Shown in pieces: positions 13-12,280 of a stretch of DNA of 64,000 nt. A program made the translations under genes and the position numbers. Under the pieces are notes generated by a model. It was not told the origin of the DNA and did not search any database. It worked only from the letters and a program-made list of their open reading frames with translations. Origin of the DNA: a virus (lineage: Duplodnaviria; Caudoviricetes); the IMG/VR virus record IMGVR_UViG_3300020577_007535, positions 1,401 to 65,400 of that record. The stretch is one strand, 5' to 3'. Positions within the stretch are counted from its first letter, which is position 1; each line of letters begins with the position of its first letter.

Positions 13-1374
13 GTGGCGAACCTGCAGCCCGAAGCCCTGGACCTGGTGCGCGAGCAGCGCCTGACCATGGGCGGCGCCGAGGAGCTGGCGCGCGCTCCCA
101 AGGCCGTTCAGTCCGAGTTTCTCCAGACCATGGCCGATCGCGCGCAGCGGTGGAACGCGCACGAGGTCGAGGGAGCCGTCGAGGTTCGGCGCTTCGTCAG
201 GGAGAAAATGAACGTCGCGCGGCTGATCGACGCACCGTTTAGCTTGACCGATGGCGCCCTGCATGGTGGCGCGTGTGAGCAGTGCCCCAAGAATACGGCT
301 CAGCAGCGCGACCTGTTCGACGAGAAAAGCGGTCCGGGAGAGTGCCTTGACCGTCCCTGTTTCGAGATCAAGCAGACGCGGCACTGGGCCGCAAGAGCTG
401 ATGCGGCGCGGGCAAGCGGGGCGCAGGTGCTCGACGTCGAGGAGTCTCGGAAGTACATCAACGTCGGAGGCAGCGGCTTGCCCTACCGCGGTCCGCTCAT
501 CGACCTCAGCGAAGACTGCGAAGAGGATCCGAAATTCGTCAAGGCGCGGGACGAGTTTGACCAGTTTGATCCGGACGAGGCCAACGGCAAGGACCAGCCG
601 TCAGAGCCCAAGGCTCGGACGTATATGGAGCTCCTGAAAGACCATCTGGCGACCCGGCCCGAGGAAGTCATGGTGGTGACCATGCCGCCGGAGGTGCCGC
701 TCTTGAGCCAGGGCCTGCGGTACTGCGTTCGTCGCGAGCGCCTGGCGGACCTGCTGCACGATGCCGGGTATCCGGAGATTGCCGAGGAGGCCCGGAAGGA
801 GATGGAAAACCGCGGCGTCCAGCCCGGTCTGGGCACGCTCGAATCGCCGGGCAGTGCTGCCGATCGGCACAAGGCCGACCTGGAGCGCCGCGCGCTCGAG
901 CAGAAGGCGCACACCAAAGCGCTCGAGCGCGCGATGGTTAAGCTCGGGGACTTCTTTGATGGGCTCAGCTTCGAACTGCCCAAGGCTCAAGAGGAGCAGC
1001 TGGCGGGCGTGCTGTGCGAGCTCGTGCATTTGCGCTGGACCCGCCAGAGGAGCGGCGCGGCGCTCCGGCGCCAGCTCGGCGAGGATGCGCCGCGGCACGA
1101 GTGGCAGGAGAAGAAGATCAAGACGGATCCGCGGCTCGAGGACTATTCGAGCAAGGATCTGCTCGGCTTTCTTGTCGAGCTCCTGATGGAGAATGAGGCG
1201 TCCAGCGTCGGCACCGTCACTCCCCGGGTCAAAAGAGCGCTCAACGCGCTCAACACGGTCGACTATGACGCCCTGGTCGCCGAGGAAACCAAGGTGCTGC
1301 GGGCGAAGGCCAAGGAAAAAGCTGCCAAGGCATCCTTGACCAAGAAGACCAAGGGCAGCAAGGCGGCCAGCTGA
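13..1374 (+). CDS. ParB/Spo0J-family protein (PRTRC ParB-like), 5'-truncated by the window edge
   Basis: The frame is open from base 1 (RRILVANLQ). It has the ParB central helical region (LQPEALDLVREQRLTMGGAEELAR) and the Cys cluster ACEQCPKNT...GECLDRPCF seen in PRTRC-type ParB proteins. Confidence 0.6.
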   Translation: MANLQPEALDLVREQRLTMGGAEELARAPKAVQSEFLQTMADRAQRWNAHEVEGAVEVRRFVREKMNVARLIDAPFSLTDGALHGGACEQCPKNTAQQRDLFDEKSGPGECLDRPCFEIKQTRHWAARADAARASGAQVLDVEESRKYINVGGSGLPYRGPLIDLSEDCEEDPKFVKARDEFDQFDPDEANGKDQPSEPKARTYMELLKDHLATRPEEVMVVTMPPEVPLLSQGLRYCVRRERLADLLHDAGYPEIAEEARKEMENRGVQPGLGTLESPGSAADRHKADLERRALEQKAHTKALERAMVKLGDFFDGLSFELPKAQEEQLAGVLCELVHLRWTRQRSGAALRRQLGEDAPRHEWQEKKIKTDPRLEDYSSKDLLGFLVELLMENEASSVGTVTPRVKRALNALNTVDYDALVAEETKVLRAKAKEKAAKASLTKKTKGSKAAS

Positions 1375-2844: not shown

Positions 2845-3375
2845 ATGGCCCTGTGTCCTCCAGTCCCTGTAGCCAATCCCGTCGTTACCATCTCCAAAGA
2901 GATCAAGTTCTCGTCGGCTCACGAGCTGCCGCACCATCAGGGCAAGTGTAAGAACAGGCACGGCCACACATACGTGCTTCAGGTCAAGATCCGGGGCTTC
3001 GTGCGGCCCGTGGATGGGCAGTCCGAAAGCGGCATGGTCTTCGACTTCAGCCGACTCGGCCGGACGCTCAAGCGACTGCACGACGAGTGCCTGGACCACA
3101 AAAATCTGAACGACTTCGACGAGTACCCGACGGCTGAGCGCATGGTGCTGCGCATCGCGTACCTGCTGCTGCTCGATCTGGGCCCGGATCTGCACCCCTT
3201 CGGCGCCTCCATCGCAAGCGTCCGGCTTTACGAGGAGAGCGTTTTTCCCGCCTGCTACGCCGAGATCGAAAACCCGAACCTGCGCATGCTCGGCGATGCC
3301 CTCCCGGACACGAAGCTCTGCCGTCGGGCGGAGTGGACGTCGGTTCCGCTCCTAGGCTCGCGCGTGAATGGCTGA
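2845..3375 (+). CDS. queD: 6-carboxy-5,6,7,8-tetrahydropterin synthase
   Basis: KFSSAHELP, CKNRHGHTY, GMVFDF, LDHKNLND, PTAERM, VRLYEE are PTPS/QueD motifs. Confidence 0.92.
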   Translation: MALCPPVPVANPVVTISKEIKFSSAHELPHHQGKCKNRHGHTYVLQVKIRGFVRPVDGQSESGMVFDFSRLGRTLKRLHDECLDHKNLNDFDEYPTAERMVLRIAYLLLLDLGPDLHPFGASIASVRLYEESVFPACYAEIENPNLRMLGDALPDTKLCRRAEWTSVPLLGSRVNG

Positions 3376-4097
3376 TGCCGCGCTACCCCATCCATGAGCA
3401 CTTCGCCACCTTCCAGGGCGAGGGCGTAAACGTCGGCACCCGGGCCTACTTTATCCGGCTCTACGGCTGCGATGTGCGCTGCTCGTTCTGCGACAGCGCC
3501 GGCACCTGGCACCGCGACTTCAAGCCGGACAACCTGCTCCAGCTGAGCGCCGAGGAGACCGCGGACCTGGTGACGCTGCCGATCCGCTCCCTCGTCGTCA
3601 TCACGGGCGGAGAGCCGGCGCTGCACGACCTCACGCCGCTGTGCTCGGCGCTGCACCAGCGCGGCGCCTATCGCCTCGCCATCGAGACGGCGGGGCACCA
3701 GCCGCTGCCGCGCTTGTTCGATCACGTCGCGCTCAGCCCCAAGACCAAATTCGGGGCGCAGCCGTTGCCCGACAACGTGGTCATGGCGAGCGAGTTCAAG
3801 ATCATCGTCGAGGACGAGGGCGACATCATCGACGGCATCAAGGCGATCGCGGCGCACCGCCGGCCGGGCACGCCCGTCTGGCTGCACCCAGAGTGGTCGC
3901 GCGCGCAAGACCCCAAGGTGCTGCACACCATCCGCGACGCGGTGCTCAACGGTGAGCGCTACCTGCCCGATCCAAACTCGCTGCGCGCCGGCTACCAGTT
4001 GCACAAGCTGTATGCGGCCGACGAGATGAGCGGCGCCGCCCGGCCGCCGGTCCCGCTTGGCGGCCGGCGCGGCCCCCTGCCTCCGAGCTCGCGCTGA
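3375..4097 (+). CDS. queE: 7-carboxy-7-deazaguanine synthase (radical SAM)
   Basis: FATFQGEG, FIRLYGCDVRCSFCDS (CX3CX2C), VVITGGEP, IETAG, LSPK, YQLHK. The ATG at 3375 overlaps the queD stop. Confidence 0.93.
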   Translation: MPRYPIHEHFATFQGEGVNVGTRAYFIRLYGCDVRCSFCDSAGTWHRDFKPDNLLQLSAEETADLVTLPIRSLVVITGGEPALHDLTPLCSALHQRGAYRLAIETAGHQPLPRLFDHVALSPKTKFGAQPLPDNVVMASEFKIIVEDEGDIIDGIKAIAAHRRPGTPVWLHPEWSRAQDPKVLHTIRDAVLNGERYLPDPNSLRAGYQLHKLYAADEMSGAARPPVPLGGRRGPLPPSSR

Positions 4098-4264
4098 TGG
4101 AGCCGCTGCGGCATGTCGCAGGCCTGCTGCTTGCGGCGACCTTCGGGGCGGTGTGCGCCTGGTCGCGGCTGCCCGCGCCGGCGCCGCCCACGCTCTATGG
4201 GGCGCTGCTCGTCGTGGGTGCCACTAGCGGCTACATAATCACCACGCGGCTGCTCGGCCGCTGA
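4097..4264 (+). CDS. 55-aa membrane protein, XapX/DUF1427-like (not in the ORF track)
   Basis: MEPLRHVAGLLLAATFGAVCAWSRLPAPAPPTLYGALLVVGATSGYIITTRLLGR: two hydrophobic helices flanking a P-APP motif. The ATG overlaps the queE stop. Confidence 0.65.
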   Translation: MEPLRHVAGLLLAATFGAVCAWSRLPAPAPPTLYGALLVVGATSGYIITTRLLGR

Positions 4265-4276
4265 GGGGACCGCTGC

Positions 4277-5095
4277 GTGCACCTGCATCTGGCAACGGGG
4301 ATGATGATCCGCGGGCACATCGACTGGATCTACAACCGGGTGCGACGAGACATCCCCAAGCCGCTACTCACCTACGCCTACCCCGAAGCCGTCGAGACGA
4401 TCCCGGTGCACCTTCTCGGCAGCGAGCCGGTGCGGCTGCTGGTCGACTCGGGCGCCTTCACCGCGTTCACCCAGGGCCAAGTGCTCCGGCCTGAAGAATA
4501 CGCCGAGTGGGGCCGCGCGCTCGAGCGCCGCTGGTCCTGGCGGCTCGCGGGCCTGCGCTTCTTTTCGCTCGACGTCATCGGCGATCAAGAGGCGAGCTGG
4601 CGCAACCACACGCGCCTAGAACAGCTCGGGCTGCAAACGATCCCGATCGTCACCTACGGCGCCGAGATGCGGCACTTGGACCGGGCGCTCTGCTACCCGT
4701 ACATGGCGCTCGGGGGGCTTGTGCCGCTGGCCACCCGGCGCGCAGAGCTCGAGTCCTGGCTCGACGTCTGCTTTGCCAGGGTGCGGGCCCACCAGCAGCG
4801 CGTGGGCACCTGGCCCAAGGTCCACATCCTGGGCATCAGCCAGGAGTGGGTGTTAAACCGCTACCCCGCCTACAGCGCCGACAGTTCGACGTGGGCCAAC
4901 GTTATGCGCTTTGGTGCCATCAGATTTGGTGAAGCCTCTGATATGGGTGGTCACAGGCAGATGCCAAAGCCCCAGAGCCAGCGCGAGCAGCTCATCACCT
5001 GCGCTGCGCTGCGCCGCGAGATCAACGTCTACCGGCAGATGGAGCGGCACGCCACCGAGCGCTGGACGGCGCGGGGCGTGACGTTCGAAGATTGA
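4277..5095 (+). CDS. dpdA: DpdA-like deazaguanine DNA transglycosylase (TGT fold), paralogue 1
   Basis: LLVDSGAF, SLDVIGD, MALGGLVP, VHILG and ADSSTW motifs; embedded among preQ0 synthesis genes. Confidence 0.8.
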   Translation: MHLHLATGMMIRGHIDWIYNRVRRDIPKPLLTYAYPEAVETIPVHLLGSEPVRLLVDSGAFTAFTQGQVLRPEEYAEWGRALERRWSWRLAGLRFFSLDVIGDQEASWRNHTRLEQLGLQTIPIVTYGAEMRHLDRALCYPYMALGGLVPLATRRAELESWLDVCFARVRAHQQRVGTWPKVHILGISQEWVLNRYPAYSADSSTWANVMRFGAIRFGEASDMGGHRQMPKPQSQREQLITCAALRREINVYRQMERHATERWTARGVTFED

Positions 5096-5104
5096 AAGGA
5101 CGCC

Positions 5105-5863
5105 ATGACCACCGACGAAAAAACGCCCGAGACCTGTGCCAGCTCCGACCCAGCAGGAGACGCCGCGCCGCCCGAAGACTTTGCGCCCGAGAGCCTGCAT
5201 TCCGAGCCCGAGCCCGGGACCAGGCTCGGGCCACCGGGTCGGCTCGATGCCGAGCGGGCCGTTTGGACGCTGCTCAGCTACATCGGCGAGGACCCCCGCC
5301 GCGCGGGCCTTCGGGACACGCCCGCGCGCGTCGTACGGAGCCTGGAGGACATGACCCGGGGCCTGCGCGAGCCGCACGAGCTCAAGCTGACGCTGTTCGG
5401 CCTGGTCGAGGCCGATCCACATGAACCGGTCATCGTCCGCGGCATCGAGTTCTCAAGTCTCTGCGAGCACCACCTGCTGCCCTTTGTCGGCAAGGCGGAC
5501 CTGGCCTACCTACCGGTCAATCGCCACGTCCTCGGGCTGTCCAAGCTCGCGCGCCTGGTGCAGCACCACGCCGCTCGGCCGCAGGTCCAGGAGCGCCTGA
5601 CAGCGCAGATCGCCGCCGACCTCGGACGCGCGGCCGCGGGCCTGCCGCTCGGGCCGCCCAAGGCAAAGCCCGCCCGCCTCGCCGCGCATCAGCAGCCCGT
5701 GTTGCACAGCTTTGCGCGCCTGGTGGCAAAGCACGGGTGCATGCACTGCCGAGGCGTGCGCACGAGCGCCAAGACCATCACCACGATCGGCACCGGCAAG
5801 CTCGCGCAGGGCGAGACCCTGCGGGGCTACGTCGAGCGGCAGCTCGGAAACACCACTTACTAA
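5105..5863 (+). CDS. folE: GTP cyclohydrolase I
   Basis: [55 protein letters not shown]; carries an insertion of about 25 aa before the last Zn-ligand Cys. Confidence 0.93.
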
Positions 5864-5872
5864 GGAGGCCCC

Positions 5873-6607
5873 ATGCTCGATCGGCTCGAAGATTTCCCCG
5901 CCTGCATCCCCCACCCGCGGCCCGTCACCTCCGTTGCGCTGCTGTCGGGCGGACAGGACAGCGCCGTTACGCTCGCGCTCGCGCTGGCCAACAGCGAGCG
6001 CGTCCTGGCCGTGAGCTTCGACTATGGGCAGCGGCACCGGGTCGAGCTCCGCTGCGCGCAGGTGATCGCGGACTTCTTCCGCGTCGAGCATTTGATCTTG
6101 TCGGTCCGCGCGCTCGCCGAGATCGGAAACTCCGCGCTGCTCTCAAGCCGCCCCGACGCGATCGGCTCTGCCCATCCGCAGGCGCCCGACCTGCCAGCCT
6201 CGTTTGTGCCCGGTCGCAACGGCCTGTTCATGCAGCTCGCCGCCGCGGCCGGCTACGCGCGCGGCGCTGCGCTGCTCTGGGGCGGCTGGTGCCAGACCGA
6301 CTACAGCGGCTATCCCGACTGCCGCGCCGAGTTTTTACAGGCGCAGGAGCGCGCGCTGCAGATTGGCCTTGGCCGCCAGGACCTCACGGTCTGCGCGCCG
6401 CTGCTCCACCAGAGCAAGGCCGAGACCTTCCGGATCGCGCGCCGGCTCGGGGAGACGATCGAAGAAGTCGTGCTCGAGCACACCATGACCTGCTACCGCG
6501 GCGACCGCTCGCAGCGCCACCCCTGGGGCTACGGCTGCGCGGACTGCCCGGCCTGCGGCATCCGCGCCCGCGGCTTCGCTGAGTACCAGGCACATCCCGC
6601 CCTGTAG
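5873..6607 (+). CDS. queC: 7-cyano-7-deazaguanine (preQ0) synthase
   Basis: LLSGGQDS, SFDYGQRH, FVPGRN, TDYSGYPDCR, TMTCYRG, GCADCPAC. Confidence 0.95.
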   Translation: MLDRLEDFPACIPHPRPVTSVALLSGGQDSAVTLALALANSERVLAVSFDYGQRHRVELRCAQVIADFFRVEHLILSVRALAEIGNSALLSSRPDAIGSAHPQAPDLPASFVPGRNGLFMQLAAAAGYARGAALLWGGWCQTDYSGYPDCRAEFLQAQERALQIGLGRQDLTVCAPLLHQSKAETFRIARRLGETIEEVVLEHTMTCYRGDRSQRHPWGYGCADCPACGIRARGFAEYQAHPAL

Positions 6608-6651
6608 ACCTCGCCTCATTTCAGGCCGAAAAACAGGAAACCCCCGCCGCT

Positions 6652-7443
6652 GTGCATCTGCATTTTGTCACCACCCACCAGGCGCCCGGCGGACCGCATC
6701 AGGCCCTGCGCAGCGAAGGTGCTGCCGCCTCGCTCATGAGCTACGCGCACCGGCGCGTCGAGCCCTTTTTGAGCGGCTGCTGGGGACCTCATCACCGGCT
6801 GATCATCGACTCGGGCGCCTTTTCGGCCTGGTCCGCGGGCGAGGTCATTCGCCCCGAGGCTTACGCAGAATGGGCGCTCCGGTTCCAGCGGCGCTGGCGC
6901 GGCCGGCTCGGGGCGCTTGAGTTCATGTCGCTCGACGTCATCGGGGACCAGGCCGCATCGTGGCGCAACCACCAGGCGCTGCGCCTTGCGGGCCTGGACC
7001 CGATCCCGATCGTCACCCATGGGGTCGAACTCCATCACTTGGACCGCGCGATGGACGAGCACCCGCGCGTGGCGCTCGGGGGCCTGGTGCCGCTCACCCG
7101 CGACGCCCGAGCGCTCCGCGGGTGGCTCGACGCCTGCTTTGCGCGGGTGCTCCGCCGCTACAAAACCACGGGCAAGATCGCGCGGCTGCACCTGCTCGGG
7201 GTCACCCAGCCCTGGGTGATGCGGCGCTACCCGGCTTTCAGCGTGGACAGCAGCTCCTGGGAGGTGCTCATCCGCTACGGCGGCGCCGGCGGCATGCTCG
7301 GCGCACACGAAAAGGTCCCGCACAACACCGTGGCGCCCGCCATCAACGTCTACGCGCTGCGCCAGCAACTCCGCCTGTATCAAGGGCTTGCGCGGGAGGC
7401 GTCTGAGATCTGGCGCGCCCGTGGTATTGATTTCGACGCATGA
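6652..7443 (+). CDS. dpdA: DpdA-like deazaguanine DNA transglycosylase (TGT fold), paralogue 2
   Basis: LIIDSGAF, SLDVIGDQAASWRNH, VALGGLVP, LHLLG, VDSSSW; clearly collinear with 4277-5095. Confidence 0.8.
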   Translation: MHLHFVTTHQAPGGPHQALRSEGAAASLMSYAHRRVEPFLSGCWGPHHRLIIDSGAFSAWSAGEVIRPEAYAEWALRFQRRWRGRLGALEFMSLDVIGDQAASWRNHQALRLAGLDPIPIVTHGVELHHLDRAMDEHPRVALGGLVPLTRDARALRGWLDACFARVLRRYKTTGKIARLHLLGVTQPWVMRRYPAFSVDSSSWEVLIRYGGAGGMLGAHEKVPHNTVAPAINVYALRQQLRLYQGLAREASEIWRARGIDFDA

Positions 7444-8234
7444 CCACGCCGCAAGTCGCCCCGCTCCCCATCGATCTGACCCGCCGCCAGGGCCCGCTGC
7501 CGCAGCTGCCGACCCTGCCGCAAAACGCCAAGGCCGCCCGGCGGACCCAGCTGGCAGCGCTCGTGCCGCAGGATGTGCCGATCCAGCTCATCCACTTTTT
7601 CCCGGACAACCACAACGAGCAGGACGAGCGGACCTTTGCGGGCGAGTGCGAGAGCCTGCTGCGCTTCGGCATGGTCGATCCCTGCTTGGTCCGTCCCTTT
7701 GACGAGGCAGACCTTGCGGCCGGCATCGGCGAGCCGGGCGGCTACGAGATGATCGACGGCGAGCACCGCACCCGCAGCATCTTCGCGTGGATGGAAAAGG
7801 GACTGCCCGAGGGCGCCCACAAGGACCTGGTGTACCTGTGCCAGCAGATGGTGGTGCCGTGCCTGGTGCAGCCGATGTCCCGCGCCTGGGCCGCGCGCTT
7901 GCGCATCGTGCTGTCCGAGACTCGAGGCCGGAGCAACGCCGTCAAGCTCGGCAAGGTGCTCAGCCAGCTCGTCGATTCGGTGGGCCTGGAAGAGCTGCGC
8001 GTCGGCACGCCCTGGACGGTCGAGCATGTGCGCGAGATCGTCGAGGTAGGGAAGTTTGACTGGGAGGCCTTCGAGCGCGCCGCCGCCGAGCGCAAGGCCG
8101 GCGCCAAGTCCGAGGCGACCGGGACCGTCAAGGTCACCATCGAGTGCCCAAAGAGCGCCCAGGACCAGCTGCACGCCGACATGCGGCCGCTCATCGAAAA
8201 GCACGGCCTGCGCGTCAAAGTCGCCAAGAAGTAG
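7440..8234 (+). CDS. ParB/Srx N-terminal-domain protein
   Basis: PDNHNEQD...ESLLRFGMVDPCLVRP...YEMIDGEHR is a ParB-like signature; overlaps the dpdA-2 stop. Confidence 0.75.
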   Translation: MTTPQVAPLPIDLTRRQGPLPQLPTLPQNAKAARRTQLAALVPQDVPIQLIHFFPDNHNEQDERTFAGECESLLRFGMVDPCLVRPFDEADLAAGIGEPGGYEMIDGEHRTRSIFAWMEKGLPEGAHKDLVYLCQQMVVPCLVQPMSRAWAARLRIVLSETRGRSNAVKLGKVLSQLVDSVGLEELRVGTPWTVEHVREIVEVGKFDWEAFERAAAERKAGAKSEATGTVKVTIECPKSAQDQLHADMRPLIEKHGLRVKVAKK

Positions 8235-8249
8235 CCCACCCGCTGCGCA

Positions 8250-8804
8250 ATGCCCCGCCGCCCCGCCACGGAGCCGAGCGCCATCCCTCCGCCGCGGCCG
8301 CCACTCAAGCTCCGCCAGCAGACCCAGCAAAGCCCCCCGCCCCCGCGCTCTGAGCCTCAAGTCCCCGAGGCCGAGCGCATCGAGTACGTGATCCAGCTGC
8401 TCAGCAGCGGCTTTACCCGCGCCGAGATCCTGCCGCACCTTGCGCGCAAGTTCGAGGTGGACCGCCGCGCCGCCGCCCGCTACCTCGCCGAAGCGCTCGC
8501 CGAGCTGCGCCGCGCCGCCGCCATCCAGACCACCACCGAGGGCGTGCAGCATGCCGCGATGCTCCGGAGCCTCTACCGGGACTGCGTGCGCACGCAAGAC
8601 CTGCGGACCGCACTCGATGCGCTCAAGCTCCTCATGCGGGTCTCGGGCACCACAATCGCCGAGAGGGACAACGGGGTCCTGATGGTGATTGACGGGCGCG
8701 ACCCAGCGGACCGGAGACAGGGCCGGCGCCTGCCGCCGCCCGAGGTGCTGGACGTTTCGGACCTGGGCGATTTCCCGTCGGGCCAGCCTCGGAAAAAAAG
8801 ATAG
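8250..8804 (+). CDS. HTH protein, terminase-small-subunit-like
   Basis: ERIEYVIQLLSSGFTRAEI...ARKFEVDRRAAARYLAEA (HTH), then DLRTALDALKLL. Confidence 0.5.
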   Translation: MPRRPATEPSAIPPPRPPLKLRQQTQQSPPPPRSEPQVPEAERIEYVIQLLSSGFTRAEILPHLARKFEVDRRAAARYLAEALAELRRAAAIQTTTEGVQHAAMLRSLYRDCVRTQDLRTALDALKLLMRVSGTTIAERDNGVLMVIDGRDPADRRQGRRLPPPEVLDVSDLGDFPSGQPRKKR

Positions 8805-8848
8805 GGACTACCCGTCTATGCGGGGCGGCGCGTAGTATGGACAAACCC

Positions 8849-9598
8849 ATGTCCAAGGGCCCCCAGACCATCAAGCCTGCGTCCGCTAGAAAACCTGCGC
8901 AGCGCGCGCAGCCGGCCCGCAAGGGGCCGAAAAAAAAACGCACCCGCACGCTCAAGACCACCCCCGCGCAGCTCAAGCGTGCGGCCAACACCATCGAGGC
9001 TGTGAAGCTCCGGCGGCAGGGGCTGCAGTACGACGAGATCGGGCAGCGGCTCGGGTGCAGCCCTAAGACCGCGCACGAGATGGTGACCGAGTGGCTCAAG
9101 AAGCTCGCCGCCGAGACGCGCGAGCAGAGCGAGACCCTCCGGGCCATCGAGCTGCGGCGCCTCGATGCGCTCTACGAGGCGATGGAGTCGCTCGCGCTCA
9201 AGGGCAGCCCCAAGGCCACCATGGCGTGCGTCAACATCTCCAAGCGCCGGACTGCGCTGCTCGGTCTAGACAAGCAGAAGGTCGAGATCGACGTGAGCCT
9301 GAAGGGCTACGCGGTGCACGCGGCAAGCCCCGACGCCTGGCCCGATCCGCCCCGGCTCGGCCCTGGCGGCGAGCGCATCATCGACATGCCGGTGCAGCAG
9401 TACCCCGCCGCCGGTCCCGAGGCGTCGCCGGACCTCGACGCCGAGGACAAGGCGGACGATCGCCCGGCCGCGCCCGAGGAGCCAGCCGGCCCGCCGCTGC
9501 CGAACCTGCCACCCGGAGCGCCGGTTCCAAGCCGGCCGGCGCCGCCCCCGCCGGCTGACCCGTGGGAAGAACTCGAGAAGGCCCTGGAGCAAAAATGA
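8849..9598 (+). CDS. terS: Terminase small subunit (HTH type)
   Basis: AVKLRRQGLQYDEIGQRLGCS, ELRRLDALY, ISKRRTALLGLD; lies upstream of TerL. The start may be 8837. Confidence 0.65.
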   Translation: MSKGPQTIKPASARKPAQRAQPARKGPKKKRTRTLKTTPAQLKRAANTIEAVKLRRQGLQYDEIGQRLGCSPKTAHEMVTEWLKKLAAETREQSETLRAIELRRLDALYEAMESLALKGSPKATMACVNISKRRTALLGLDKQKVEIDVSLKGYAVHAASPDAWPDPPRLGPGGERIIDMPVQQYPAAGPEASPDLDAEDKADDRPAAPEEPAGPPLPNLPPGAPVPSRPAPPPPADPWEELEKALEQK

Positions 9599-10869
9599 CC
9601 CGAGTCGACATCATCAAGCGCGCCCGCGGGCTGCAGCAGCTGTGCGGCAGCTCCAACCCTCACGAGGCCGCAGCCGCGCGCCAGCACCTGGAGGCGCTCG
9701 AGCGGCACCACAAGCTGACCGATGCCGAGATCCGCGACCCAAACGAGCGGCCCGACCTCGGGCAGCGCCAGGTGGTGCTGGCGGTCGAGTGCCCGCGGCT
9801 CATCGCAGACTTCGTGCTGGCGGTGGTAGGCGCGCTGCGCATCGGCGGCAAACCCTCGGGAGACCACCACATCCTGGTGGCCGGCTCAGAAGCGGAAGCC
9901 GCCGCAGGGGCGCGCCTTGCGCAGCGGGTCACCGCGCTCATCATGAGCGAGACCGAGCGAAGCGCAGAGCGCGCGGTCCGGCAGCGGGGGCACTTTGACG
10001 GGCCGTCCCTGTGGGCGGGCATCGCGAATGGCTTCATCGAGCGGCTGCGGCCGCCGCCGCCACCCGAGCCCAGCGCAGGCAGCGCCCGAGCTGGGGGAAC
10101 GAGCCCAGCGCAGGCAGCGCCCGAGCAGCCACCCGAGCCAGCGCCCGAGGATGTGGTGATGGAGCCAGCCGAGCCAAGCCCCGATGCGCATGCGCTCGTG
10201 CTCTACCGGCCGCAGGCGCGCCAGGCGCCGCACCGCCGCCGGGCCGTCACGATCGCAAGCCCAGCGGACGAAGCGCGGGGGCGGCAGCTCGCGCGCGACT
10301 TCCCGCTTGAGGTAGCCGGAGACCTGGCCGCGCCCGCAGGAGCTGCGCCAGCCGGCGGCGCCGCGGGGCCTTCGCGGTTTGCGCGCGCGCTCGCCTGGCT
10401 GCGCCGGGTCGGCTGCGAGGACAGCAACAACCCGGGTGCGCAGGCCTTTGCCGGGCAAATCTTGGGCGGGGCGGACGAGCGGACCGCGACGGTGAACTAT
10501 GCGATCTGGCTGTGGGGGCAGTGGCGCGAGCTCCGGCTGCAGATCCAAGAGGAGGAACTGCCCGAGTCTGATGCGCTGCTCCGGCCGCACCCGGAGTCGC
10601 CAAACACAGCGATCGTGCTCGCGCAGCAGTCGCAGACCTTCGAGCTGCTGTTGACCTGGTGCGCCGACGTGGGGCCGCGCTGGTGGCAGCTCGACGGCGT
10701 GGCGCGGGCGGAGGTGCAGGAGCGCAAGCGCAAGCAGCAGGAGAGGCGGCAGCAGATGTGGCGAAACGACATCGACGCTGACCCGATGGCCTGGCAGCGC
10801 ATGGTGCAGGAGATCGTCCTAGGGGTGCGCGGGACCGCGGCGCCAGGGAGCCCACGCAGCGGTGGCTGA
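9595..10869 (+). CDS. DUF2786-like protein
   Basis: N-terminal IIKRARGLQQLCGSSNPHEAAAARQHLEALERHHKL matches the DUF2786 pattern; the ATG overlaps the terS stop. Confidence 0.6.
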   Translation: MTRVDIIKRARGLQQLCGSSNPHEAAAARQHLEALERHHKLTDAEIRDPNERPDLGQRQVVLAVECPRLIADFVLAVVGALRIGGKPSGDHHILVAGSEAEAAAGARLAQRVTALIMSETERSAERAVRQRGHFDGPSLWAGIANGFIERLRPPPPPEPSAGSARAGGTSPAQAAPEQPPEPAPEDVVMEPAEPSPDAHALVLYRPQARQAPHRRRAVTIASPADEARGRQLARDFPLEVAGDLAAPAGAAPAGGAAGPSRFARALAWLRRVGCEDSNNPGAQAFAGQILGGADERTATVNYAIWLWGQWRELRLQIQEEELPESDALLRPHPESPNTAIVLAQQSQTFELLLTWCADVGPRWWQLDGVARAEVQERKRKQQERRQQMWRNDIDADPMAWQRMVQEIVLGVRGTAAPGSPRSGG

Positions 10870-12280
10870 TCTCGTTCCGCAAGACGTCGGCACGACGAGC
10901 CTCTATGTCACCGAGGCCCCGCCGAACAGCGTCAAGCTGCACCAGACGTTCACGCCGCTGGATTGGCAGATCGCGCCTTGGCAGGACCGGTCGCTGGTGC
11001 TGCTGCTCACCGGCGCAGCCGGCGGCGGCAAGAGCCAGCTTGCCGGCGAGAAGATCCACGCGCTGGCCATGAAGTACCCGGGCTCGACCTCGCTCATCGT
11101 CCGCAAGGCCCGGGAGTCGATGACCAACGGCACCGTGCCGTTTTTCTCGACGGTGATCATCGGCGATGACCCCAGGGTTCGCATCCTGCCGAGCAAGCAC
11201 CGCTGGGAGTATGCAAACGGCAGCGTCGTCGTCTGGGGCGGCATGTACGACGCCAAGCAGCGGGAGGCGATCCGCTCGATCGGCGTGCGCGGTGGCGTGG
11301 ATTTCGTCTGGATGGAGGAGGCGACCGCCTTCACCGAGGAGGACTTCAACGAGATCCTGATGCGCATGCGCGGCAACATGGCCGGCTGGACGCAGGTGAT
11401 CCTGACGACCAACCCGGATCGCCCGACGCACTGGATCTACCGCCGGCTGATCAAGGGACGGGAGGCCAAGACCTTCTACAGCCGCGCCGCGGACAACAAG
11501 TACAACCCGGCGAGTTACGCGCAGCACCAAGCCAAGCTCACCGGCGCGCAGTACCTGCGCCTGGTCAAGGGGCGGTGGGTCCAGGCCGAGGGCGTTGTGT
11601 ACTCGCAGTGGGACCCGGGCAACCGGGGCGGACACGTCATCCGCCGCTTCGCGATCCCCGAGGACTGGAGACGCATCCGGGCGATCGACTTCGGATTTAC
11701 CAACCCCTTTGTCTGCCTGTGGATCGCGATCGACCACGACGGGCGGATGTACGTCTACCGCGAGATCTACCGCACGCAGCGCCTGGTGGAGGACCACGCC
11801 CGCACCATCAACGCGCTGACGGGCGTGGAGCGAATCGAGGCAACGATCGCCGACCACGACGCCGAGGGGCGCGCGACGCTCAACAAGTACGGCATCGAGA
11901 CGGTGGCAGCCTACAAGGACATCGAGCGCGGGATCGAAGCCCTCAAGGCGCGGATGCTCCGCCAGCCCGACGGCCTGCCGCGCATCTTCTGGTTCGAGGA
12001 TGCCCTGGTGGACCCCGATGAAGCCCTCATCGAGGCAAAGAAGCCTTACTCGGGCCTGCAAGAGTTTGAGTCCTACCGCATGCCCCCCAAGTCGAAGAAC
12101 AACACGGAAAAGGAGCTGCCGATCAACGAGGACAACCACGCGATGGACGCGCTGCGCTACGGCGGCGCCTACGTGGACGGCCTCAAGATCCGGGGCAACC
12201 CCCGCGGCATCATCCTGGCGGCCGGACAGGCGCCGCACCGAAACAAAGACGTAATCGACGCGCTCACTCCGGACTGGTAG
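10862..12280 (+). CDS. terL: Terminase large subunit (PBSX-like)
   Basis: Walker A GAAGGGKS, Walker B WMEEA, LTTNP, and nuclease motifs IDFGFTNP and DNHAMDALRY. Confidence 0.95.
   Translation: MADLVPQDVGTTSLYVTEAPPNSVKLHQTFTPLDWQIAPWQDRSLVLLLTGAAGGGKSQLAGEKIHALAMKYPGSTSLIVRKARESMTNGTVPFFSTVIIGDDPRVRILPSKHRWEYANGSVVVWGGMYDAKQREAIRSIGVRGGVDFVWMEEATAFTEEDFNEILMRMRGNMAGWTQVILTTNPDRPTHWIYRRLIKGREAKTFYSRAADNKYNPASYAQHQAKLTGAQYLRLVKGRWVQAEGVVYSQWDPGNRGGHVIRRFAIPEDWRRIRAIDFGFTNPFVCLWIAIDHDGRMYVYREIYRTQRLVEDHARTINALTGVERIEATIADHDAEGRATLNKYGIETVAAYKDIERGIEALKARMLRQPDGLPRIFWFEDALVDPDEALIEAKKPYSGLQEFESYRMPPKSKNNTEKELPINEDNHAMDALRYGGAYVDGLKIRGNPRGIILAAGQAPHRNKDVIDALTPDW

Follow-up and report, generated by a model that had tools for sequence, protein, structure and literature searches.

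Previous work on Rosebush, an actinophage of 69% GC, showed that a phage with the four synthesis genes FolE, QueD, QueE and QueC and a single DpdA carries dPreQ0 at 28% of G (PMC6884629). In Salmonella Montevideo, DpdA, a TGT-barrel enzyme that inserts preQ0 into DNA, lies beside DpdB, a ParB-fold ATPase with the motif DGQQR and an SspE-like C-terminal domain (PMC10164549; PDB 7ui4). The known DpdAs are motif-limited, acting at GA in phage iggy and at GA and GGC in CAjan (PMC10484667); these are the only two motif sets known for phage DpdAs, and the modified fraction of G spans 0.1% to 100% across DpdA subfamilies. How DpdA enzymes pick the guanines to be replaced is a question on which a phage locus with two DpdA genes bears.

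The window analysed here, 64,000 nucleotides long, is from an uncultured high-GC phage. Tail sheath, tape measure and terminase genes establish the phage context, and the terminase large subunit (10862..12280, + strand; phrog_2, 4.4e-34) has its closest isolate relatives, at 33-37% identity, in Thermobifida and Streptomyces phages. Window positions 2845-8234 hold a single tight operon of eight + strand genes that are separated by 9-44 nt or overlap. The first two encode QueD, a 6-carboxy-tetrahydropterin synthase of the PTPS family (2845..3375; PF01242, 3.6e-23; phrog_2389), and QueE, a radical SAM 7-carboxy-7-deazaguanine synthase (3333..4097; phrog_2076, 4.3e-32; Radical_SAM, 1.2e-6) whose real start may lie some codons downstream of 3333. 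The QueE stop is overlapped by the start of a 55-aa XapX-domain ORF (4097..4264; TIGR03510, 2.1e-9, 36.8 bits against a cut-off of 27.8), for which tblastn found matches at the equivalent position in four related loci (L004, L005, L086 and L087). There follow DpdA-a, a predicted DpdA1-type DNA guanine transglycosylase of 272 aa (4277..5095; phrog_887, 3.5e-28) with a GTG start preceded by GAGGGG; FolE, GTP cyclohydrolase I (5105..5863; PF01227, 1e-46); QueC, 7-cyano-7-deazaguanine synthase (5873..6607; PF06508, 5.8e-61); DpdA-b, a second predicted DpdA1-type transglycosylase, of 263 aa and also with a GTG start (6652..7443; phrog_887, 1.2e-27); and a ParB N-domain protein of CTPase fold with a helical C-terminal part (7440..8234; family profile against ParB/Noc, 4e-14). 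The initial annotation had described a queD-queE-(XapX)-dpdA1-folE-queC-dpdA2-parB operon, and the profile matches bear out all eight genes, with their positions and strand. With the four synthesis genes, two intact DpdAs and a ParB-type gene, its reading as a phage operon for preQ0 synthesis and insertion into DNA also stands.

Judged by its genes, the pathway is complete up to preQ0, which would be made from GTP by FolE, QueD, QueE and QueC and then, once the phage has replicated its double-stranded DNA, exchanged there for guanine; the resulting dPreQ0 would block restriction by the host. This predicted product is shared with the Rosebush-type phages, as are the four synthesis genes, a DpdA bearing a particular conserved His, and the lack of an amidotransferase and of QueF. 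Rosebush also resembles the window in its high GC and in an operon that adjoins terminase genes. The Rosebush-type phages differ in having one DpdA where the window has two, with identity of only 27-34%; the XapX-like ORF and an evident partner of ParB fold are further features of the window.

The initial annotation had suggested that two enzymes might insert two different bases. A version in which each DpdA uses its own 7-deazaguanine, say preQ0 for one and a pathway intermediate such as CDG or ADG for the other, is improbable. DpdA subfamilies have shifted their base preference and the nt-1 DpdA2 seems promiscuous (PMC6884629, PMC10516641), and the QueC reaction goes via ADG, but the pocket motifs argue for a common base: DSGAF, LDVIGD, GGLVPL, H-LG and DSS-W are identical in the two copies, and GGLVPL fits GGhsbb, the mark of preQ0-using enzymes (PMC10164549). 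These motifs also bear out the shared core that had been described. Moreover, the 65.4-kb record, about 69% complete, yielded no tailoring enzyme. QueF, YaaA/DpdC-type and ArcS (DUF5591) domains had no match there, and QueC, at 244 aa, has no amidotransferase fusion, so that the reported absence of queF, gat-queC and arcS holds for this record. A search of the same partial record for DpdC (PF03883, YaaA/DUF328-type), which converts dPreQ0 to dADG and is part of the bacterial Dpd system, likewise gave no match. The adjoining ORF at 8250-8804 does not resemble an enzyme; it is more like a small protein of HTH or terminase type.

Both DpdAs appear to be minimal TGT-barrel proteins. A structure model of DpdA-a (pLDDT 88) has the TGT-type (beta/alpha)8 barrel, and its best 50 structural matches are all TGTs with Z of 16-17; it matches arcTGT 1iq8 with Z 17.4 and rmsd 3.8 over 242 aligned residues and Z. 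mobilis TGT with Z 16.8 over about 240 residues, and Foldseek matches include DpdA 7ui4. The barrel is assigned to DpdA-b by its 48% identity to DpdA-a over 220 residues (E 3e-72). Residues D57, F61, D99 and D202, which together would supply the stacking Phe, the base-recognising Asp and the catalytic aspartates (general acid/base and nucleophile), are invariant across the family and kept by both copies; matched by motif rather than by superposition, they correspond to Asp95, Phe99, Asp130 and Asp256 of S. Montevideo DpdA (PMC10164549), with which the window proteins share the catalytic Asp pair and the preQ0-type pocket motif. In addition, H183 of DpdA-a and the equivalent His of DpdA-b align with His196 (KVHGFG) of phage 9g DpdA, a conserved residue that is lacking in DpdA2 and so separates DpdA1 from DpdA2 (PMC6884629). 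The DpdA1 assignment of both copies rests on this His and on direct tblastn matches to the DpdAs of 9g, CAjan and the Rosebush type. The bacterial models fit poorly: the DpdA equivalog NF041059 gave 11.9 bits for DpdA-a against a cut-off of 200 and no match for DpdA-b, and the PADLOC DpdA model gave E values of 0.01 and 0.044 for the two DpdAs.

The same features bear on an earlier suggestion that the two enzymes divide DNA and RNA between them. The family descends from tRNA-guanine transglycosylases and the phage encodes one tRNA-Met, so that a host or phage tRNA could be imagined as a substrate. Both proteins, however, are bare barrels of 263-272 aa that lack the zinc subdomain and the C-terminal domains for tRNA binding. 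Their nearest relatives are phage DpdA1 members that act on DNA, and the two do not differ in how TGT-like they are. The suggestion thus finds no support, and we regard an RNA-directed paralogue as very improbable.

The DpdA pair is maintained. Two other, independent assemblies, L004 and L086, contain the pair with the gene order unchanged, and an assembly artefact was therefore rejected. DpdA-a orthologues are 71-74% identical in L004, L005 and L086, and DpdA-b orthologues 71-73% identical in L004 and L086 and also as P0029 and P0038. Purifying selection is equally strong on the two copies (dN/dS 0.22 for DpdA-a and 0.25 for DpdA-b). When the window is compared with L004, no other operon gene is as well conserved as these two, at 74% amino-acid identity each. 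The two are not a recent local duplicate, since each of them clusters with DpdAs from other loci, and the closest relatives of DpdA-a are single-copy genes in complete operons (L007 and L087). Of 141 related loci, metagenomic or viral, about 8% have two DpdAs. This doubling had five or more independent origins, one of them in a Kutzneria prophage. Independent sister-pair duplications are found in L072, L107, L159 and L168, and L019, P0132/P0136 and P0130/P0143 are probably further cases; in the 15 pairs examined every copy keeps the catalytic residues. The initial annotation had taken known phages to carry one DpdA. This holds almost always for isolates: a 2019 catalogue of 182 viruses has one DpdA per virus, and GenBank phage searches gave 222 records with 225 places for one of two queries and 224 records with 226 places for the other. 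It fails for the two-DpdA loci among the metagenomic or viral ones, and no mention of DpdA doubling in related phages was found in the literature searched.

A pair of conserved paralogues raises the question of whether they form one heteromeric enzyme. QTRT2 is the non-catalytic subunit of the eukaryotic queuine TGT, which like the window combines two TGT-fold paralogues. TGT-family enzymes have been described as active dimers (PMC6884629), and in eukaryotes the TGT is a heterodimer formed by paralogues (PMC10164549). A DpdA heteromer would resemble the eukaryotic pair, or a TGT dimer with one catalytic and one substrate-holding subunit. The location of both genes in one operon, their joint presence in three genomes, their equal constraint and the recurrence of doubling in the family are all consistent with such an arrangement. 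The window copies differ from QTRT1/QTRT2, however, in their predicted substrate, DNA rather than tRNA, and in that both keep all catalytic residues; the catalytic Asp residues are retained by both members of 15 of 15 pairs. Further, S. Montevideo DpdA is monomeric in the crystal and in solution, and the nearest relatives of DpdA-a occur singly in complete operons. We consider a heteromer unlikely.

The initial annotation had placed the differences between the paralogues in the first 50 or so residues and after DSS-W. This placing holds, because 21 of the 46 fixed differences between the a and b orthologue groups fall within the first 52 residues and 15 beyond residue 204, that is, 36 outside the core of residues 53-204. 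The N-termini are nonetheless diverged homologues, both starting V-HLH, and not unrelated segments. In many relatives the plastic N-terminal module is tandemly repeated. Conservation across the whole family is lowest in just those segments where a and b differ, and divergence alone is therefore no sign of a change in specificity.

Among the proposals made at the outset, two sequence specificities is the best reading. We infer that DpdA-a and DpdA-b are two separately active DpdA1-type insertases that use one common base in different DNA contexts with a ParB-type helper, a view held tentatively and at slightly less than an even chance. Distinct contexts seem most likely because divergence between the two affects the first two beta-alpha units as well as the loop and helix that follow the catalytic DSS-W; jointly they would cover more guanines than either could alone. 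Only 19% of the G residues in the window are followed by A. A second enzyme is not strictly needed, since the single CAjan DpdA handles two motifs. The copies might instead share both their base and their target sites, the second serving dosage, timing or partner use, with, for example, DpdA-b working with the ParB-like protein on replicating DNA and DpdA-a working alone. The identical pocket motifs, the coupling of the ParB-like gene to DpdA-b only, and the position of the operon just upstream of terminase genes (here 2.6 kb from the large subunit gene), a position also found in Rosebush and the Kutzneria prophage, would fit. Plain redundancy, however, is seldom kept in copies that have diverged to 48% identity and each show dN/dS near 0.2, and separate timing is unlikely because both genes are in one operon. 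Shared sites are in our estimate an unlikely explanation.

The favoured reading, two insertases with different contexts, includes the ParB-like protein. A four-letter overlap, ATGA, holds both the stop of DpdA-b and the start of the ParB-like gene and couples the two in translation. A ParB-like gene is present in 42 of the 42 closest loci of this DpdA clade, a constant partner that recalls bacterial DpdB and was overlooked in the initial annotation. The family profile matches C. crescentus ParB at E 4.1e-14, and a structure model (pLDDT 87) predicts the fold of the ParB N-terminal domain, matching Noc 7ng0 with Z 13.7 and rmsd 1.5 over 95 aligned residues, KorB with Z 13.5 and ParB-CDP 6sdk with Z 13.2. 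Set against the nucleotide-binding GxxRxxA box of ParB-type CTPases, the family has IIDGEHR and mostly also NPWNPN, in place of which the window protein has DNHNEQ. Like DpdB it is a predicted ParB-superfamily NTPase-fold protein beside a TGT-barrel DpdA, with IDGEHR at the position of DGQQR, but structurally it is closest to ParB, Noc and KorB and less like DpdB with its SspE-like architecture. In a PADLOC scan of seven neighbouring proteins it matched none of the models, a set that includes the DpdA model. A second, larger ParB-family protein (13..1374, + strand; TIGR03734 PRTRC ParB, 5.6e-10) is cut by the window start; the equivalent upstream position elsewhere holds a ParB_N and HTH_ParB ORF of 647 aa in L004 and 636 aa in L005. 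In the literature searched, a link between DpdA and ParB was found only for bacterial DpdB. Arthrobacter phage Mufasa8 (MN586027) has a similar arrangement, with DpdA (gp90) followed by an overlapping ParB_N gene, gp91 (PF02195, 8.8e-10; a ParB-like nuclease domain protein), and then the preQ0 genes, but its DpdA is single and 27% identical. Encoded right after DpdA-b, the window protein probably helps to load or move the enzyme on DNA, as DpdB assists bacterial DpdA.

Natural DpdA pairs, having one pocket and different peripheral segments, offer a comparison for mapping the determinants of specificity, with at least five independent pairs usable as replicates and the prophage of Kutzneria viridogrisea DSM 43850 as a cultured entry point. 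Given the constancy of the ParB-type neighbour, deazaguanine insertion into DNA may commonly involve a nucleotide-dependent DNA clamp or loader, in phages as in bacteria, which would change how deazaguanine systems are reconstituted in the laboratory. The fuller proposal, that DpdA doubling is recurrent and selected and that two context-different insertases with a ParB-type nucleotide-switch protein are the phage counterpart of DpdA/DpdB, is possible but on the unlikely side. If true, guanine replacement in these phages would rise well above the reach of a single motif-limited enzyme, and the N-terminal module would set the choice of context or partner.

The record behind the window, which spans its bases 1401–65400, is linear, 65.4 kb long and about 69% complete as judged by CheckV. 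GC content is about 67%, and the genes include those for the large terminase subunit, a tail sheath and a tape measure protein. The tail sheath and its companion genes, together with a terminase sharing 33–37% identity with its counterparts in Thermobifida and Streptomyces phages, mark the source as a contractile-tailed phage remote from every isolate, whose host may be an actinobacterium. A megablast search of the deazaguanine operon against GenBank phages gave zero matches. The initial annotation placed a 7-deazaguanine cluster of eight genes in one operon (2845–8234), and all eight were found on the + strand: QueD (PF01242, 3.6e-23), QueE (phrog_2076, 4e-32), a 55-aa ORF with a XapX domain (4097–4264; TIGR03510, 2e-9, above the model cut-off), DpdA-a (4277–5095, 272 aa; phrog_887, 3.5e-28), FolE (PF01227, 1e-46), QueC (PF06508, 6e-61), DpdA-b (6652–7443, 263 aa; phrog_887, 1.2e-27) and a ParB-like protein with the motif IDGEHR (7440–8234). 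Neighboring genes are separated by 9–44 nt or overlap, and the DpdA-b stop and the ParB-like start share an ATGA. Orthologues that open with M-HLHL at the same site back the GTG start assigned to each DpdA gene. In line with the initial annotation, which recognized no queF or arcS, QueF, ArcS-type and YaaA/DpdC-type domains were not found in the 65.4-kb record, itself about 69% complete, and the expected product is therefore preQ0. The XapX-like ORF has tblastn matches at the same operon position in the related loci L004, L005 and L086, and in the more distant L087. For the ORFs at 1702–2769 and 8250–8804, Atlas searches offered no hint of an enzyme.

The two DpdAs were recognized as TGT relatives through structure. 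With default thresholds, Pfam matched neither DpdA, its TGT model included, nor the ParB-like protein, and PDB sequence searches with DpdA-a or with the family profile returned nothing relevant; the link to TGTs came from fold comparison only. DpdA-a was modelled with AlphaFold from 25 relatives (pLDDT 88), and over about 240 residues the model aligned with the archaeosine and bacterial TGTs at Z scores of 16–17. The best 50 structural rows for this model were all TGTs, and its Foldseek match list includes the DNA preQ0 insertase DpdA, 7ui4. DpdA-b, which shares 48% identity with DpdA-a across 220 residues, is predicted to have the same barrel. Invariant positions in the family alignment include D57-S-G-A-F61, L-D99-V-x-G, G146, H183-x-x-G and S200-x-D202, and I103, D103, G147, L148 and W206 are near-invariant; each DpdA retains every one of the invariant and near-invariant positions. 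At the motif level these match residues of Salmonella Montevideo DpdA, namely Asp95, Phe99, Asp130 and Asp256, the nucleophile; in that enzyme Asp95Ala and Asp256Ala each abolished activity (PMC10164549). The conserved His of both proteins aligned with His196 of phage 9g DpdA, a residue with no equivalent in DpdA2 (PMC6884629). Judged by these residues, DpdA-a and DpdA-b are of the DpdA1 type, and each appears to be active. Both also have GGLVPL, in agreement with GGhsbb, the motif that marks preQ0-using enzymes as against those using preQ1 or queuine (PMC10164549). The proposal in the initial annotation that the two enzymes insert different bases is disfavored, because the pocket motifs are identical and tailoring genes are absent from the record. 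The accompanying proposal of a DNA/RNA division of labor, in which one paralogue acts on RNA, found no support.

The pair is conserved. In L004, a Logan contig, the order is QueD, QueE, small ORF, DpdA, FolE, QueC, DpdA, ParB-like, as in the window; its first DpdA is 73% identical to DpdA-a and its second 72% identical to DpdA-b. L086, a 3.3-kb NCBI metagenome contig, has an a-type gene, FolE, QueC, a b-type gene and the start of a ParB-like gene. An assembly artefact was rejected, since the same pair is found in three assemblies. In the comparison of the window with L004, no operon proteins are better conserved than the two DpdAs, each at 74% identity, with dN/dS values of 0.22 for DpdA-a and 0.25 for DpdA-b; the other operon genes gave 0.29–0.49. 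These values, along with intact motifs in both proteins, rule against a decaying or inactive copy. Plain redundancy, in which the copies do the same work, is hard to square with two copies retained together for so long, at 48% identity and strongly constrained. When four a-orthologues were compared with four b-orthologues, 46 positions were fixed differently: 21 in residues 1–52, 10 in the core (53–204) and 15 beyond 204. This upholds the earlier observation that the paralogues diverge in the first 50 or so residues and after DSS-W. In the DpdA-a model residues 1–52 form the first two beta-alpha units, residues 205–234 a helix and a low-confidence loop directly after the nucleophile, and residues 235–265 a long C-terminal helix. 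The pattern could reflect altered DNA context or partner use, but it is no proof of either, because the regions where a and b differ are also the least conserved regions of the whole DpdA family.

Previous work catalogued 182 viruses in 2019, each with one DpdA or DpdA2, and full-text literature searches turned up no account of a phage carrying two DpdAs. GenBank phages largely conform: the DpdA-a query hit 225 places in 222 records and the DpdA-b query 226 places in 224 records, with two or three records having two DpdA-like places. The single DpdA that the initial annotation described for known phages is nevertheless not universal among the related loci. Single-protein searches of IMG/VR gave nothing useful and a profile search was needed; across IMG/VR, JGI/NCBI metagenomes and GTDB genomes, two DpdA-like genes were present in 11 of 141 distinct related loci, a lower bound because many contigs are short. 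The copies are exclusive sisters in L072, L107, L159 and L168 (support 99–100) and in L019 (92/94). P0132/P0136 and P0130/P0143 are also sister proteins, their co-location being putative, from equal lengths of the source contigs, as is that of P0089/P0040. Non-sister pairs are those of L008/L166, L149 and the window type. L159 has the window-like order QueD, QueE, DpdA, FolE, QueC, DpdA at only about 30% identity. L168, a prophage in the chromosome of a cultured actinomycete, Kutzneria viridogrisea DSM 43850 (NZ_JACJID010000002.1, about 1.277–1.292 Mb), has the order small terminase, DpdA, DpdA, QueC, QueD, QueE, FolE, large terminase, with a DUF6884/YaaA-like gene close by on the opposite strand. 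The operon is likewise directly upstream of, or between, terminase genes in the window (2845–12280) and in Rosebush (L171, 1–6041), an adjacency that may reflect coupling of modification to packaging. Some family members are long forms of about 360–470 aa (P0005, P0008, P0016, P0017, P0024, P0078, P0083 and L019:8536–9855) in which an N-terminal barrel module of about 45 aa (xIHLAD...RGQ...LFSYAY), for which Pfam gave no match, is tandemly repeated one to three further times. By a crude motif count, 44 of 158 family proteins have at least two modules. Several two-DpdA pairs consist of one long and one short copy.

A careful maximum-likelihood tree of 43 proteins (LG+C20) bears on the origin of the pair. 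A 17-row clade (support 96/86) divides into a b side (100/99), with the orthologues from the window, L004 and P0038 plus P0037, P0101, P0035 and P0043, and an a side (89/82), with the a-orthologues plus P0007, P0005/P0008 and P0010/P0011. P0007 (locus L007) and P0008 (L087) are single DpdAs, each followed by a ParB-like gene, in complete operons. Since these single-copy proteins fall on the a side, the a/b split predates the separation of several single-copy lineages. A recent local tandem duplication was rejected because DpdA-a groups with single-copy DpdAs of other phages. The tree suggests either an old duplication with loss of one copy elsewhere, or the gain of one copy from a related phage. 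A heteromer of the QTRT1/QTRT2 kind is weakened by the single-copy state of the closest relatives of DpdA-a, by retention of the catalytic residues in both copies of every pair examined (15/15), and by the monomeric state of bacterial DpdA (PMC10164549).

A profile of 20 relatives of the ParB-like protein matched ParB and Noc CTPase domains (4e-14 and 1e-13), and a model of the window protein (pLDDT 87) aligned with Noc, KorB and ParB-CDP at Z 13–14; family motifs are IIDGEHR and, usually, NPWNPN. When loci with a DpdA of at least 130 bits and room downstream were surveyed with an HMM of this family, the gene was present in 42 of 42, directly downstream of DpdA in 29; loci with the gene include L004–L026 and L087. 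Arthrobacter phage Mufasa8 shows the same pairing, with DpdA (gp90) followed by a ParB_N protein (gp91, 8.8e-10); in its deazaguanine cluster (L172, 53807–56674) both gp92 and gp96 are annotated as GTP cyclohydrolase I. A further case may be Rosebush gp1, a weak match to the family (hhalign probability 47%) whose gene shares 4 nt with that of DpdA. Bacterial DpdA requires DpdB, a ParB-fold ATPase (PMC10164549), and in the literature searched a DpdA-ParB link was found for bacterial DpdB only. Model searches did not class the phage protein as DpdB, but it could be a functional parallel, the phage counterpart of DpdB, and this is the most economical reading. A larger ParB-family protein, PRTRC ParB-like (5.6e-10), is encoded upstream of the operon at 13–1374; at the matching position L004 and L005 have an ORF with ParB_N and HTH_ParB (647 and 636 aa), with a Dam methylase gene still further upstream.

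The reading we favor, though we give it somewhat less than an even chance, is that DpdA-a and DpdA-b would be two active preQ0-DNA insertases, each acting in different DNA contexts; every functional step here we infer. Two contexts would fit what is known: DpdAs are limited by short motifs, whose frequency sets the share of G that can be replaced (PMC10484667). In this genome only 19% of G precede A and 11% lie in GGC. In sum, the operon in the window is a genuine and conserved version of the phage dPreQ0 system already known, with two DpdAs instead of one, and it belongs to a DpdA clade that, in the loci surveyed, always travels with a ParB-type protein. Beyond the interest of the variant itself, the recurrent DpdA pairs offer naturally replicated comparisons from which DpdA specificity could be worked out.
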